From a virus (lineage: Duplodnaviria; Heunggongvirae; Uroviricota; Caudoviricetes), in IMG/VR virus record IMGVR_UViG_2585427728_000007: 42,114 nt of DNA. One strand, given 5' to 3'. The position numbers were made by a program, and so were the translations under genes. The notes below the pieces were generated by a model. It worked only from the letters and a program-made list of their open reading frames with translations, ran no database searches and had not been told where the DNA came from. Each line of letters begins with the position of its first letter. Position 1 is the stretch's first letter. Positions 2,878 through 34,653 of this stretch are shown one piece after another.

Positions 2878-3557
2878 CAGAGTAATACTCCCCATGCCCC
2901 TACATCAAAACCACTGATGAATTCGTTATCCATATCAAAACCAAAAAATTTTGAACCTTCCGATGGAGTTTCCACCGAAGGTGTTTCAACGCTGCCAGCC
3001 CATACACCAGCAGCTTTAACGGTGAGATAACCCTGTTTGATAGCGGCTATCAGTTCGAGTGACACATCAGAAATATCAGTCTCAGGGAATACCCAGACCG
3101 ATATCGTCATGTCCTGGTTATCGACGATCTGCATCTTCAGTCCAGAGCCTGCGGTAGCAGCGTCAAGGATGGGAGGCAGAGAGTCGTTCCGACCATCCCA
3201 GTTGTTGATAGCGATTTTCGCTTTCAGAATGATGCGGTACGTCTCATCACTCAGCGTCGTATAGCCAGAATCAGGATCATATGGCCCTTGCCAGATGCCC
3301 TGGTCATATCCGAGCCCGTCAGTGTCCCAGCTGAAATAAACGCCGCTAATTGGCTGGCTGACTATACGACTACGCCCAATCCACAGGCCGAGGATATCGA
3401 GTTGCACGCCAACCGCCGTATCGATATCGAAGGCTGTTACAAGCCCTGACATAGTGCTGGACACATCAATCAGCGGGCGGGTGCTCAGATCTATATGGTC
3501 AAAAAAGAGTGGCTTGGTAGCATGGTAGTTAGTGATCAGTTCGGTGTATTTGCTCAT
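2877..3557 (-). CDS. Baseplate protein (Mu gp48 / P2 gpI-like position)
   Basis: Start taken at internal ATG 3557 (MSKYTELITNYH...), which forms an ATGA overlap with the stop of the J-like gene; position between baseplate J-like gene and tail fiber. Confidence 0.55.
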   Translation of the reverse strand: MSKYTELITNYHATKPLFFDHIDLSTRPLIDVSSTMSGLVTAFDIDTAVGVQLDILGLWIGRSRIVSQPISGVYFSWDTDGLGYDQGIWQGPYDPDSGYTTLSDETYRIILKAKIAINNWDGRNDSLPPILDAATAGSGLKMQIVDNQDMTISVWVFPETDISDVSLELIAAIKQGYLTVKAAGVWAGSVETPSVETPSEGSKFFGFDMDNEFISGFDVGAWGVLL

Positions 3558-5110: not shown

Positions 5111-5749
5111 TTAACCTCCCAGCGGCTTAGTATTGCTTCCGCCGCTCTCAACGCCGCCATGGGTATGCTTATCCACGATAGAACCGTCCACCAGCTGCAA
5201 GTGACCGTCAGGCAGGATTTTGAGCCCGTTAAGGTTAAATCCGCCCGGTGCAGTGCCATTTATTGCCCCGCTGGATGGGTTAAGGCTTAACTTTGTGCCG
5301 CCGTCATCGCTGCGCAGCTCTACCGAACTGGTACTGATACCGCTGATTTTCCGTGCTTGCGACTGCGGGCCAACGATGGCGAACGCATCAGATAAGTCAT
5401 GCTGTCGAGGGTCGACTGTCTCCTGAACGCCGCCGCTCTGCCACCAGAAATCGATGCAACGGTCGGCAAAGATAAGCAGGCATTCGTCGCCTTCTTTTAC
5501 CGGAAAGGTCAGCGTGCAACCACCGCCGCGAGGAAAGATAACCGGCACATCCACCAGCGGTTTTAATTCGGTGGAGCCGTCGCCAACAATACCGCGAAGC
5601 GCCACCTCTGCTGTGCAGGTAACAGTATCAGGATCGAACGACTGAATGATGCCAGGCATCGCTACGCGCATCTGGGTAGACACCGAATCGGCAATGGCCT
5701 GCGCGGTCTGCTGCTCGCCGCCGATCTGTGATTGAGTTGGAATTGGCAT
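5111..5749 (-). CDS. Baseplate central spike / assembly protein (Mu gp45 / P2 gpV-like)
   Basis: Start taken at ATG 5749 (MPIPTQSQ...) preceded by GGAG; the 16-codon N-terminal extension in the ORF track would have to encode a terminator hairpin plus T-tract. Gly-rich C-terminus typical of spike proteins. Confidence 0.55.
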   Translation of the reverse strand: MPIPTQSQIGGEQQTAQAIADSVSTQMRVAMPGIIQSFDPDTVTCTAEVALRGIVGDGSTELKPLVDVPVIFPRGGGCTLTFPVKEGDECLLIFADRCIDFWWQSGGVQETVDPRQHDLSDAFAIVGPQSQARKISGISTSSVELRSDDGGTKLSLNPSSGAINGTAPGGFNLNGLKILPDGHLQLVDGSIVDKHTHGGVESGGSNTKPLGG

Positions 5750-24460: not shown

Positions 24461-24536
24461 TGGTGCTGGTTAACGGACTTGAACCGCTACCCATTCGCTT
24501 ACAAGGCGACCGCTCTACCATTGGAGCTAAACCAGC
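24461..24536 (-). tRNA. tRNA, anticodon TGT (Thr) by manual fold
   Basis: Minus-strand 76 nt GCTGGTT-TA-GCTC-CAATGGTA-GAGC-G-GTCGC-CTTGTAA-GCGAA-TGGGT-AGCGG-TTCAAGT-CCGTT-AACCAGC-A-CCA; perfect 7 bp acceptor stem, GTTCAAGTC T-loop, U33 and A37 flanking TGT, encoded CCA. Confidence 0.65.
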
Positions 24537-24541
24537 ATGTT

Positions 24542-24616
24542 TGGCGGGACAGCGTGGACTCGAACCACGATAAGAAGGTTAACAGCCTTCCGTAATGACC
24601 TTTATACGACTGACCC
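24542..24616 (-). tRNA. tRNA, anticodon GTT (Asn) by manual fold; atypical D-arm
   Basis: Minus-strand 75 nt GGGTCAG-...-GAAGG-CTGTTAA-CCTTC-TTAT-CGTGG-TTCGAGT-CCACG-CTGTCCC-G-CCA; perfect anticodon and T stems, GGTTCGAGTCC T-arm, one T-T mismatch in the acceptor stem, D-loop lacks the usual GG. Confidence 0.55.
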
Positions 24617-31257: not shown

Positions 31258-31554
31258 TCAGAATTGCATATCAATTTGCTCAGAATCCTCGGTGGCAGCC
31301 GGGGATTTTTTCTTTGCGATTCCATCCAATGCATACTTAAAAGCCCTGCTAATCGGACTGATGTCTGATGCCATTCCGAAAGCACACAAGACCGAAGCAA
31401 TAAATCTCCAGTCCGTTCTGCTTATCTTCGATTCATGACAGCCAATCATCTTTGCCAGACCGCGCTGGGTAAGCGTTGACAGGTTGATGAGTAAATCTGT
31501 TTCTGCGCGATCAACGTCGCGCTGTGATAGTTTGCTGTAACTTGTTTGTTCCAT
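31258..31554 (-). CDS. cII: CII-like transcriptional activator
   Basis: 98 aa; HTH region LTQRGLAKMIGCHESKISR and C-terminus KKKSPAATEDSEQIDMQF resemble lambda CII (C-terminus ...KKRPAATERSEQIQMEF as recalled). Confidence 0.8.
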   Translation of the reverse strand: MEQTSYSKLSQRDVDRAETDLLINLSTLTQRGLAKMIGCHESKISRTDWRFIASVLCAFGMASDISPISRAFKYALDGIAKKKSPAATEDSEQIDMQF

Positions 31555-31691: not shown

Positions 31692-31925
31692 TTATGCTGC
31701 TGATGCTCTACGCGATACGAACACCAGGTTTTCCTTTTTCACGGGTTTATAGGCCGTGAAATTACGAGTAGCTTCTTCGATTGCATTCGCTTTATCAGGG
31801 GAAGCTCTTCGAAATCCATATGCAATCTGGTCAAGATAGCCAACTGAAGTTTTCGCTAATGCGGCGAGTCGCTTCCATTCCTCACTAGAAGCCTCTTTTC
31901 GCCAGCGTAGTAGTTCATTACTCAT
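31692..31925 (-). CDS. cro: Cro-like repressor (HTH protein divergent from cI)
   Basis: 77 aa; HTH segment KTSVGYLDQIAYGFRRASPDKANAIEEA; divergently transcribed from cI across the operator region; GGAGG Shine-Dalgarno. Confidence 0.65.
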   Translation of the reverse strand: MSNELLRWRKEASSEEWKRLAALAKTSVGYLDQIAYGFRRASPDKANAIEEATRNFTAYKPVKKENLVFVSRRASAA

Positions 31926-31936
31926 TAGTGCCTCCG

Positions 31937-32020
31937 TTTATCATACAGAATAACTTTACCATTTTGATAAATCAACCGCAATGTAAATTTATCATATTGC
32001 GTATTTATCCATTTGCTAAA
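31937..32020. promoter_or_regulatory. Right operator region (oR) with pR / pRM; repeated TTTATC-N5-GATAAA sites
   Basis: 17 bp sites TTTACCATTTTGATAAA (31955-31971) and TTTATCCATTTGCTAAA (32004-32020), plus half-sites at 31937 and 31988; candidate pR on the minus strand has -35 TTGATT (31975..31970) and -10 TATTCT (31952..31947) bracketing the first site. Confidence 0.55.
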
Positions 32021-32038
32021 TAGAGGGAAAATTGTGAG

Positions 32039-32743
32039 ATGGAAAACAAAGATATTCGCAAATCGAATCTGGCGTTTTTGCTAGATGAGCATAAAAAAAT
32101 CGCGGGTAACACTAATGCAAGCTTTGCCGATAAGCTTGGGGTTAGCCCTTCTCAACTCACGCAAGTCTCCGGTGAAAAAAGCACTCGAAACATAGGGGAT
32201 AAACTAGCAAGAAAATTTGAAGCCGCACTTGGGTTACCTAATGGGTGGCTTGATTTGGTACATGATGTAACACCAATTGCATCATGCTCAGATTCTTTAA
32301 CTTTTGTCGGTCAGGTAAGAAAAGGGTTAGTGCGCGTGGTTGGTGAGGCAATTCTTGGTGTTGATGGTGCCATCGAGATGACCGAAGAGCGCGATGGGTG
32401 GCTCAAAATTTATAGCGATGATCCAGATGCCTTTGGCCTTCGTGTGAAAGGAGACAGCATGTGGCCTAGAATAAAATCAGGAGAATATGTACTCATTGAG
32501 CCTAACACCAAAGTATTCCCGGGTGATGAGGTGTTTGTCAGAACCGTTGAAGGACACAACATGATTAAGGTTCTTGGCTATGACAGAGATGGAGAATACC
32601 AATTTACAAGCATCAACCAAGACCACAGGCCAATAACGTTGCCTTATCATCAAGTAGCAAAGGTGGAGTATGTGGCTGGTATTCTGAAGCAATCTCGCCA
32701 TCTGGATGACATCGAGGCAAGGGAGTGGCTGAAAAGTTCGTGA
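32039..32743 (+). CDS. cI: CI-type repressor (N-terminal HTH, C-terminal S24 LexA-like peptidase domain)
   Basis: 234 aa; HTH around FADKLGVSPSQLTQV; C-terminal domain with the Ser (GDSMWP) and Lys (MIKVLG) of the autocleavage dyad; divergent from cro. Confidence 0.9.
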   Translation: MENKDIRKSNLAFLLDEHKKIAGNTNASFADKLGVSPSQLTQVSGEKSTRNIGDKLARKFEAALGLPNGWLDLVHDVTPIASCSDSLTFVGQVRKGLVRVVGEAILGVDGAIEMTEERDGWLKIYSDDPDAFGLRVKGDSMWPRIKSGEYVLIEPNTKVFPGDEVFVRTVEGHNMIKVLGYDRDGEYQFTSINQDHRPITLPYHQVAKVEYVAGILKQSRHLDDIEAREWLKSS

Positions 32744-32812: not shown

Positions 32813-33253
32813 ATGAGAGAAGAAAAAATAATAACAATCTACACAACGGCGGTAAAACCCGGGCTGGCAATCACTCCTTTTATGACACCAGATCCTATAA
32901 TAGTGTCGGAAGAATACCCTTGTTCCGGCTCATTTTACCTAACTGCAATAATGTACTTCGAGCACGAAAAAAAATACACTACCGAACTTGATGTCGTATT
33001 CAATGGAGAATCGGTTTTACCTGATATCTCTAGCAATCAAGAGCAACTGCAAACATTTATGTTTTCTCCTGTCAATGAAAAATATGTTGTGGTTGGCACA
33101 TATCTTTTCGTTAAAAACATCAAACTTATAGAAACAGGAACATATGACATAATTTATCGCATCTTTGAAGACATTGATGGTAATCTTAGCGAAGTTATTG
33201 ATGAAAAAAAATGCGCTCTTATTTCAACCACCCCGAACAGAGATAAGGAATGA
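32813..33253 (+). CDS. Hypothetical protein, first gene of the cI-adjacent accessory cassette
   Basis: 146 aa; AT-rich coding sequence; ATG preceded by AAGGA; no terminator between the cI stop and this gene; no recognisable domain. Confidence 0.6.
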   Translation: MREEKIITIYTTAVKPGLAITPFMTPDPIIVSEEYPCSGSFYLTAIMYFEHEKKYTTELDVVFNGESVLPDISSNQEQLQTFMFSPVNEKYVVVGTYLFVKNIKLIETGTYDIIYRIFEDIDGNLSEVIDEKKCALISTTPNRDKE

Positions 33254-33606
33254 AACGACATCTGTACGCTGTGCCTCTTGACAGGAGTAAAGTTGATAAT
33301 TTTCCACATAACCACCATAATGATGAGACATATGGTGGTGGTAACGGTGGAGGTGGTGACATGTTACAGCGCATAAAAATTCTTGAAGATAAAGTCGCAA
33401 CCATGGCGACCGACATCGCTGTAATTAAGTCTAACTATGCAACATCTGCCAATGTAGAATCTGTTAAAACAGACATAGCTAATGCAAAAGCAGAACTTCA
33501 CAGCGCAATGAGACTCCAAGCCATGGCTATTATTGGTTCAGTTCTTGCAGCCGTTGGAACTGGTGTTGGGTTAATAATAAAAATGATGCCATCACTACCT
33601 CACTAA
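33250..33606 (+). CDS. Hypothetical membrane-anchored coiled-coil protein, second gene of the cassette
   Basis: 118 aa; ATGA overlap with the upstream gene; Gly-rich stretch YGGGNGGGGD, predicted coiled coil (LQRIKILEDKVATMATDIAVIKSN...VKTDIANAKAELHSAMRLQ) and a single C-terminal hydrophobic helix AMAIIGSVLAAVGTGVGLIIKMM. Confidence 0.6.
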   Translation: MKRHLYAVPLDRSKVDNFPHNHHNDETYGGGNGGGGDMLQRIKILEDKVATMATDIAVIKSNYATSANVESVKTDIANAKAELHSAMRLQAMAIIGSVLAAVGTGVGLIIKMMPSLPH

Positions 33607-33616
33607 GAATCTACAC

Positions 33617-33644
33617 AACCCGGCCTCAGCGCCGGGTTTTCTTT
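33617..33644 (+). terminator. Rho-independent terminator ending the cI-cassette operon
   Basis: AACCCGGC-CTCAGC-GCCGGGTT followed by TTCTTT, beginning 11 nt after the stop of the 118 aa gene. Confidence 0.65.
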
Positions 33645-33822
33645 GCCTCTCGATCCCCCACCTAAAAAACATAACTCATTGTATTTATTGAAAAACTGAT
33701 TGATACAACTTGCTAAACCACGCAATCCAGATCTCCCTCAAATCTCTTTATTTATCCTGTCGAATTCCTACAACAAAATAAAACACCATAAGAATCAATA
33801 CGATATTTGAAAATCAAAAGAA

Positions 33823-33866
33823 TTTATCATTTTGCTATTGCCATTAATTTATCATTCCGATAAAGT
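33823..33866 (+). promoter_or_regulatory. Left operator region (oL) with pL candidate
   Basis: 17 bp site TTTATCATTCCGATAAA (33848-33864) with perfectly inverted outer hexamers, plus a weaker site at 33823-33839, same motif as at oR; candidate pL -35 TTGCCA (33838-33843), 17 bp spacer, -10 TAAAGT (33861-33866), overlapped by the operator. Confidence 0.5.
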
Positions 33867-33934: not shown

Positions 33935-33949
33935 GCGCTGACAAAGCGC
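33935..33949 (+). promoter_or_regulatory. nutL boxB hairpin (GCGCU-GACAA-AGCGC)
   Basis: GCGCTGACAAAGCGC: 5 bp stem with GACAA pentaloop, the P22-type boxB as recalled; lies between pL and the N-like gene. No clear boxA identified. Confidence 0.6.
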
Positions 33950-34210
33950 AATAACCAAAGTGAACTTTGGGGTGTGGTGAAGCCAGCTAGTCACTGGCAA
34001 GTGCTTACCTACTGTTGAGCGGTGAAGCGCTCCCAACGCTAGCAATAGCGTGGACGAGATGGGGAGCCGCGGGCGATAAGGCCGCCATAACGCGCACGTT
34101 GTCGCATGGAAAAATCACTGGGGTGCCGGTTATACCCCTCCGAATGAGACTCAACAAGCTGGAGCTAGACTACCAGCCACCACACCACCAAAGTTCATCA
34201 GGAGGTCTAT

Positions 34211-34594
34211 ATGACACGCAGAACTCAGTTCAAAGGCAATTCACGTTCTCGTCGTCGTGAGCGTTTAAAGGCAAAGGCATTAGCTAACGGCGTACTGGCC
34301 CGCGAAGAAGCAATAAGTTCAGAAGTATTACACCGCCCTACTCTAAGCAGAGCGCAGATTCAGGCTAAAGGTACTCACGAAACGCCTGAGCGCATAGAAG
34401 ACGCTAAGCCAATTAAGTTCATGGCACAGGACGTGATCTGGCAACAGAAAGAATACAGACGCAATCTGGAGCGAGTGGCCATTGTGTACGCGAATGAGTT
34501 TGGACATAAGCAACCAGAAACTGGTGTATGTCTTCCAAACGTAGCCATTTACGCGGCAGGCTACCGGAAATCAAAACAACTGACAGCAAGATGA
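34211..34594 (+). CDS. N: N-like transcription antiterminator (P22 gp24-type)
   Basis: 127 aa; N-terminal arginine-rich motif GNSRSRRRERLKAKALA; C-terminus LPNVAIYAAGYRKSKQLTAR resembles P22 N as recalled; first gene downstream of pL/nutL; GGAGG Shine-Dalgarno. Confidence 0.65.
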   Translation: MTRRTQFKGNSRSRRRERLKAKALANGVLAREEAISSEVLHRPTLSRAQIQAKGTHETPERIEDAKPIKFMAQDVIWQQKEYRRNLERVAIVYANEFGHKQPETGVCLPNVAIYAAGYRKSKQLTAR

Positions 34595-34653
34595 CTTGTG
34601 TTGGTCGCCAGAAAATGAAATTAGGCAGTAAGCTACTGTATGAGGGGTGAGAT

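Follow-up and report, generated by a model that had tools for sequence, protein, structure and literature searches.

The stretch of DNA analysed here (the window, 42,114 bases) contains at about 31.2-34.6 kb a lambdoid immunity region, oriented opposite to the lambda map. Its genes and the terminator-like element are the following.

31258-31554, minus strand: cII, by a Pfam family match
31692-31925, minus strand: cro, 77 aa, first gene of the pR operon (ORF; PHROG 35, transcriptional repressor)
32039-32743, plus strand: cI repressor, 234 aa, with a divergent, putative HTH N-domain and an S24 C-domain (PHROG 4)
32813-33253 and 33250-33606, plus strand: two unclassified ORFs that fill a rexAB-like slot, after cI and before the terminator
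33617-33638, plus strand: terminator-like hairpin, an 8-bp stem followed by a T run, at the end of the cI operon and upstream of oL
34211-34594, plus strand: N antiterminator, first gene of the pL operon (Pfam N_peptide, E = 3e-15)

The arrangement is that of a lambdoid switch, with cI and cro diverging around oR in an intergenic region of 113 bp and a second operator region upstream of N, where the interval from the hairpin to N forms a second A+T-rich regulatory region. The C-domain of cI, of the LexA-like, self-cleaving type, matched Peptidase_S24 (E = 3.8e-16, 59.3 bits against a cut-off of 23.3 bits). Its N-domain matched HTH_3 weakly (17.1 bits, E = 0.006, under the curated 23-bit cut-off of Pfam), and a PDB sequence search returned spurious pseudoazurin matches and one marginal CI fragment only. 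The Cro protein is identical to H-19B Cro at 75 of 77 residues and shows 77% identity to a Pantoea prophage Cro. The immunity region had no match in Rfam.

Neither of the two ORFs between cI and the hairpin had a match in Pfam or NCBIfam, and the ORF at 33250-33606 matches PHROGs of unknown function only. The same slot is occupied by HicA/HicB/HicC in phage mEp506 and by other genes in ST2-8624 and H-19B; its contents thus differ from phage to phage, so that it looks like a swappable cargo site, presumably expressed in the lysogen. The hairpin itself is kept in H-19B, mEp506 and ST2-8624, and H-19B and ST2-8624 have an annotated N at the corresponding place. A short ORF in another frame (34528-34650, plus strand) overlaps N at its end and encodes MTCVGRQKMKLGSK..., which we take to be similar to the C-terminal part of N proteins of the lambda/21 type, so that a recombination junction between two types of N may have left it behind as a relic.

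Phage mEp506 and many Stx1- and Stx2-converting phages are 97-99% identical to the window in this region, and the cI protein is identical to that of H-19B (AF034975) at 234 of 234 residues. The window has the gene order cII-cro-oR-cI ... oL-N in common with H-19B; it differs from it in two residues of Cro, in the genes between cI and oL, in a different insert in the N leader, in lacking the stx context in this region and in having structural genes of the SEN34/Omnitron type. The structural half (2500-23900) has its matches in Citrobacter phage Omnitron (95%) and in SEN34-type phages with baseplate proteins rather than in Stx phages, and the H-19B immunity module therefore rides here on a different type of virion. 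Two adjacent tRNA genes lie at 24464-24536 and 24545-24616 on the minus strand (Rfam, 61 and 55 bits).

Operator sites and their natural variation

The original prediction had proposed that the repressor operators of this phage share a 17-bp palindrome, TTTATC-N5-GATAAA, with two sites at oR and one perfect site at oL. The three 17-mers were found exactly at the predicted positions (31955-31971, 32004-32020 and 33848-33864), the one at 33848 being perfect, and the palindrome search that had been proposed as a check gave only these three matches with at most one mismatch on either strand of the 42,114-base window. All three fall in the cro-cI and cI-N intergenic regions; 0.05 such matches are expected, and none of 100 dinucleotide-preserving shuffles attained three. 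The other matches in the window, those with two mismatches (at 3015, 20380, 22630, 25188 and 37993), do not exceed chance level (10 seen, 5.8 expected).

Half-sites reading TTTATC were found in addition at 31937, 31988, 33823 and 33751. By a weight matrix for half-sites, for which OR1, OR3, OL1 and OL2 served as training set, the 17-mers that begin at the first three of these positions rank 11th, 6th and 4th of 42,098 positions, respectively, the last being itself a training site. The further half-sites that had been predicted thus hold up at these three positions. The half-site at 33751 ranks 107th, is not conserved in the homoimmune relatives and was rejected as an operator.

Public records already contain most of these sites. 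GQ499358 (phage ST2-8624, 'immunity region; similar to bacteriophage H19-B') labels seven 'repressor binding sites', which are placed on the window below together with the register of OR2 that we favour; the sites have no strand.

31937-31953: OR0, fourth site of oR, over the putative pR start; TTTATCATACAGAATAA; annotated in GQ499358; rank 11th of 42,098
31955-31971: OR1, main pR operator; TTTACCATTTTGATAAA; one mismatch to the motif; same as the GenBank OR1
31980-31996: OR2 as annotated in GQ499358
31988-32004: OR2 in the register supported by sequence; TTTATCATATTGCGTAT; shares 1 bp with OR3
32004-32020: OR3, adjoining the cI start, over the putative pRM -35 and spacer; TTTATCCATTTGCTAAA; one mismatch; same as the GenBank OR3
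33791-33807: OL3, a weak site; AGAATCAATACGATATT; OL3 of GQ499358; rank 41st by weight matrix
33823-33839: OL2, overlapping the pL -35 by 2 nt; TTTATCATTTTGCTATT; OL2 of GQ499358
33848-33864: OL1, with perfect hexamers, in the pL spacer and -10; TTTATCATTCCGATAAA; no mismatch; same as the GenBank OL1

The complete genome of ST2-8624 (KU238070) carries annotations for oR1-oR3 that are shifted by +2 or +3 nt, its oR2 lying at about 31983-31999; neither record states a basis for its operator annotations. Four operator sites in the OR of H-19B are given in a review (PMC8065619), with reference to Shi and Friedman, 2001. Full-text literature searches with the operator 17-mers or for further descriptions of H-19B operators gave no relevant match, and the operators of BAA2326 (PMC5977221) have unrelated sequences. 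Since the predicted sites correspond to the GenBank OR1, OR3 and OL1, and the half-site at 31937 to OR0, they had already been annotated; the prediction is correct, yet what it describes is known. It was incomplete in number, as the two sites at oR and the one at oL belong to a full set of about four and three, respectively. We consider it very probable that these sites are the operators of an H-19B-type lambdoid immunity switch.

Compared with H-19B, three bases differ at oR, two of them in OR0 (31944 and 31951) and one in the OR1-OR2 spacer (31975); OR1, OR2 in either register, OR3 and OL1-3 are identical. The differences in OR0 affect 2 of 17 positions, both of which are polymorphic within the H-19B group. 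When IMG/VR was scanned with the N-domain of cI, 51 loci were obtained in which this domain is 99-100% identical, and together with H-19B, mEp506, ST2-8624 and the window they make up 55 homoimmune loci, with 20 distinct oR and 17 distinct oL sequences and no indels. Substitutions concentrate between the sites and, within them, in the central N5. Hexamer positions are polymorphic in 8 of 83 cases and other positions in 37 of 122 (Fisher p = 5e-4, indicative, the loci being related by descent); the N5 is likewise more variable than the hexamers (9/35 against 8/83, p = 0.04, with the same restriction). No change other than singletons is seen in either hexamer of OR1, OR3, OL1 and OL2, or in the left hexamer of OR0 and of the site at 31988-32004.

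The sites differ in how strictly they are kept. Both hexamers of OR1 are invariant across the 20 oR variants, OR3 is invariant but for one singleton, and OL2 does not vary at any of its 17 positions in the 17 oL variants. The hexamers of OL1 are invariant as well, around an N5 that reads ATTCC, ATTTC, ACTCC or ATTCA. Two sites fit the consensus poorly: OR0, in its right half, where a near-invariant left hexamer is followed by GAATAA, GAACAA, GAGCAA or GAGCGA on the right; and OL3, where the pattern A-N-AATC-N5-GATATT is kept in the homoimmune loci and the N5 varies.

The hexamers had been predicted as a fixed TTTATC and GATAAA. The motif is real, its fixed form is not: TTTAGC halves occur in the Pantoea relatives described below, and H-19B, too, has them on the right side of OR3 and OL2; the refined consensus derived from these alignments is therefore TTTAKC-N5-GMTAAA, in which position 5 of the half-site is degenerate (K = G/T).

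Promoters around the operators

The following promoter elements have been assigned, those of pR and pRM as putative ones.

33838-33866, plus strand: pL, with -35 TTGCCA (33838-33843), a 17-nt spacer and -10 TAAAGT (33861-33866); 9/12 in the consensus scan
31976-31981, minus strand: putative pR -35 TTGCGG, 17-nt spacer to TAAAGT
31953-31958, minus strand: putative pR -10 TAAAGT, a pL-like hexamer with a 4-nt operator overlap, as in the geometry of lambda pR
32027-32032, plus strand: weak candidate pRM -10 GAAAAT, 6 nt before the cI ATG

The start of pL would lie at about 33873. The sequence ATCAGCAGGACGCACT begins 6 nt after the pL -10, with 16 nt identical to the sequence that follows the pL -10 of lambda at the same offset, and we take it to be the pL transcription start. 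OL1 is separated from the pL -35 by 4 nt and has 4 nt in common with the -10, an arrangement identical to that of OL1 in lambda.

The leader downstream of pL has features of its own. A hairpin, GCGCTGACAAAGCGC, at 33935-33949 downstream of the putative pL start is present in all aligned relatives and appears to be a boxB-like nutL element; its GACAA loop is presumably that of a P22-type boxB. Further on, 33955-33980 can pair with 34176-34206 in a long-range stem that takes in the ribosome-binding site of N (fold of 343 nt, z = -4.5). The flanks of this stem are kept in H-19B, mEp506 and ST2-8624, around about 190 nt that differ in each; we assume that it resembles the RNase III-sensitive structure in the N leader of lambda.

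At pR, the -10 TAAAGT is invariant among the homoimmune loci and reads TAAACT in Pantoea, and the TTGC of the -35 is likewise invariant, with TTGCTT in Pantoea. These hexamers are weak (7/12) and were not picked up by the consensus promoter scan. The start is expected near 31946, 21 nt before the cro ATG (the lambda leader has 18 nt), so placed that OR0 would span about -8 to +10 of pR. OR1 had been predicted to sit exactly between the -35 and -10 of pR; it does fill the spacer, starting 4 nt after the -35, and it runs 4 nt into the -10. An alternative pR with a higher score (8/12; -35 TTGATT at 31975-31970, -10 TATTCT at 31952-31947) was rejected, because both of its hexamers are polymorphic among the homoimmune loci, TTGATT varying at 31975 and 31973, and are degraded to ATGATT and TGTTCT in H-19B itself.

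The candidate pRM -10 was not picked up by the consensus scan either. Its spacing to the cI ATG equals that in lambda, where TAGATT and 6 nt precede the ATG of a leaderless transcript, and GAGAAT is found at this distance in variant homoimmune loci as well as in those of Pantoea, in which the flanks have diverged. We infer the promoter hexamers, the transcription starts, the activation of pRM and the binding of Cro by analogy with lambda.

The likeness to lambda (NC_001416) concerns architecture. Both phages have 17-bp pseudo-palindromic operators and a cI with an S24 C-domain; in both, the succession of -35, 4 nt and an O1 that overlaps the -10 by 4 nt is found at pL and pR alike, and O2 overlaps the -35. 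The operator sequence is, however, unrelated (TATCACCGCCAGTGGTA in lambda), and lambda has three sites at oR where the window has four. The centres of the oR sites are 24 and 23 bp apart in lambda and 18, 33 and 16 bp apart in the window (18, 25 and 24 bp with the GenBank OR2), whereas those at oL are spaced by 25 and 32 bp in the window and by 24 and 20 bp in lambda.

As the sites overlap promoter hexamers, and pL and pR have TTGC-- and TAAAGT in common, the repeats might be promoter-associated A+T-rich elements (UP elements or look-alikes of -10 and -35 hexamers) whose recurrence reflects the paralogy of pL and pR. One promoter-like match (9/12), TTAGCA-17-TATGAT at 32019-31991 on the minus strand, directed at cro, is even made wholly of halves of OR3 and OR2; this match is probably a by-product of the operator sequence, because its -10 reads AATGCT in the Pantoea loci. 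Several observations make such an origin of the repeats very improbable. OL3 and OR3 lie away from the core promoter elements; the sites are dyad-symmetric around a variable centre, with conserved hexamers and varying N5 and spacers; the motif co-varies with the N-domain of the repressor, being TTTAGC in Pantoea and absent in 933W; and the public records and the review treat the sites as repressor binding sites. We therefore retain the reading as operators.

Diverged relatives and repressor specificity

A set of diverged relatives consists of prophages in three Pantoea genomes (L005-L007) and four IMG/VR contigs (L058-L061), in which the N-domain of cI is 60-65% identical (about 62% in Pantoea) and Cro 77% identical, the C-domain being unrelated beyond the S24 core. 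Like the H-19B type they have three sites at oL, with near-equal spacings, and their oR has three. At oR, TTTAGCGTTATGCTAAA, which is the homologue of OR1 at the same relative position, is followed after 16 nt by TTTAGCATTTTGCATAT, sharing one base with TTTATCGTATTGCTAAA, the counterpart of OR3. At oL, TAAATCATTCTGCTAAA, TTTAGCATTTTGCTATT and TTTAGCATAACGCTAAA are spaced by 33 and 25 bp; the first two are the counterparts of OL3 and OL2, 33 bp apart compared with 32 bp in the window. In the first of the Pantoea genomes (L005) the two operator regions are located at 2917-2982 and 5610-5684. The promoter hexamers are equally placed, with an identical pL -35 (TTGCCA), TTGCTT as the pR -35, and TAAATT and TAAACT as -10 hexamers in place of TAAAGT. 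Unlike the H-19B type, the Pantoea relatives have mostly TTTAGC rather than TTTATC as half-site, no equivalent of OR0 in oR, and SASQFSQL instead of SPSQLTQV in the putative recognition-helix region. The two repressors might thus be a natural pair for studying a one-base shift in operator specificity.

Phage 933W provides the reverse case. It has the same overall layout, which also occurs in Stx phages, and residues 81-234 of its cI are 95% identical to those of the window cI (32279-32743), a mosaic at the level of domains; its N-domain is unrelated, and its annotated sites are 15 bp long and have other sequences. Its 7.4-kb immunity region has no match to TTTAKC-N5-GMTAAA, even when two mismatches are allowed. 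For 933W, the review (PMC8065619) gives three OR and only two OL sites. Since 933W, which is related in the C-domain only, lacks the motif, the motif goes with the DNA-binding domain, which is what one expects of an immunity determinant. By their sequences, the H-19B and 933W types share the oligomerisation and cleavage module and not the specificity module.

The main protein bound at these sites might be one other than cI, namely Cro by itself or a host protein, for instance DnaA. Since conservation of the sites goes along with that of Cro (77% identical in Pantoea), the comparative data do not discriminate between cI and Cro, and neither does the 933W control, because the cro of 933W also differs (it is annotated as HK022-like). 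By eye, TTATCCATT in OR3 resembles what we take to be a DnaA box; this string occurs in one site only, which speaks against DnaA as the common binder. GenBank labels each site as a 'repressor binding site'. In every characterised lambdoid switch that we know of (lambda, 434, P22), cI and Cro share their operators, and this counts against a binder other than cI, for which we see hardly any room.

With cI as the main binder, the switch would work as follows. Dimers of cI would bind the 17-bp pseudo-palindromes TTTAKC-N5-GMTAAA, the binding to four OR sites being taken from the literature and the annotation, and Cro, if the lambda paradigm holds, would use the same sites. At oR, OR1 would occupy the spacer and -10 of pR and OR0 its start; OR2 would lie upstream of the pR -35 and adjoin the cI promoter, and OR3 would cover the putative -35 and spacer of pRM. 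At oL, OL1 would occupy the spacer and -10 of pL, OL2 would abut the -35 and OL3 would lie upstream. In the lysogen, repressor at OR1/OR0 and OL1/OL2 would block RNA polymerase at pR and pL, while repressor at OR2 would probably activate pRM and at OR3 would turn it down. RecA-stimulated self-cleavage through the S24 domain would remove the repressor and lead to induction of the phage.

The proposal that these operators define the immunity specificity of the phage is supported in so far as the motif follows the N-domain of the repressor; the specificity itself is not new and is that of H-19B. The motif can also be used to find homoimmune relatives, as had been suggested, and such relatives were retrieved. 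The segment of oR and the cI N-domain is present in 216 of 5,426 complete E. coli genomes, at 243 places that are always chromosomal, with two copies in at least one genome, and the H-19B immunity type is found in many Stx1 and Stx2 phages. Membership in this type would predict superinfection immunity relationships with Shiga-toxin prophages. The analysis adds nothing new on how such switches work; its by-products are the refined consensus, a map of natural variation that shows where the operators are constrained and a reasoned doubt about the annotated register of OR2.

The register of OR2

The position of OR2 is the point at which our analysis departs from the public annotation. In the weight-matrix ranking of 42,098 positions, the 17-mer at 31988-32004 is 6th and the GenBank OR2 (31980-31996) 1838th, with scores of +11.0 and -6.9, respectively, and the register of KU238070 (31983-31999) scores -28.4. 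In its left part, the GenBank OR2 varies at 31983, 31984 and 31986 and lacks conservation in Pantoea. At 31988-32004, TTTAKCATWTTGCRTAT is conserved, including the 1-base overlap with OR3; in the homoimmune loci its left hexamer is invariant and changes are confined to the N5 and to 32000/32001, and the Pantoea loci have TTTAGCATTTTGCATAT at this position with the same 1-bp overlap with the next site. The centre of 31988-32004 is 43 bp from the cI ATG, and OR2 of lambda is 42 bp from its cI ATG and pRM start.

Two considerations point in the other direction. Two dimers centred 16 bp apart may interfere with each other, and the GenBank register would give an OR1-OR2 spacing of 25 bp, equal to that of OL1-OL2; we therefore do not reject 31980-31996 outright, and regard both this register and 31983-31999 as disfavoured by their low scores, the polymorphic left part and the missing conservation in Pantoea. 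By sequence and conservation, 31988-32004 is thus favoured as OR2 over the public position, and since the registers at 31988 and 31980 share 9 bp, the practical difference is small.

More tentatively, and with some doubt, we put forward the picture that OR2 at 31988-32004 shares 1 bp with OR3 and has its centre 43 bp before the cI ATG, at which a leaderless pRM transcript would start. If it is true, oR would consist of two tightly packed pairs with 16 bp between them, OR0/OR1 over pR and OR2/OR3 over pRM, and OR2 and OR3 would either face opposite sides of the helix or exclude each other. Such packing would extend to the Pantoea prophages and would be unlike the evenly spaced triplet of lambda.
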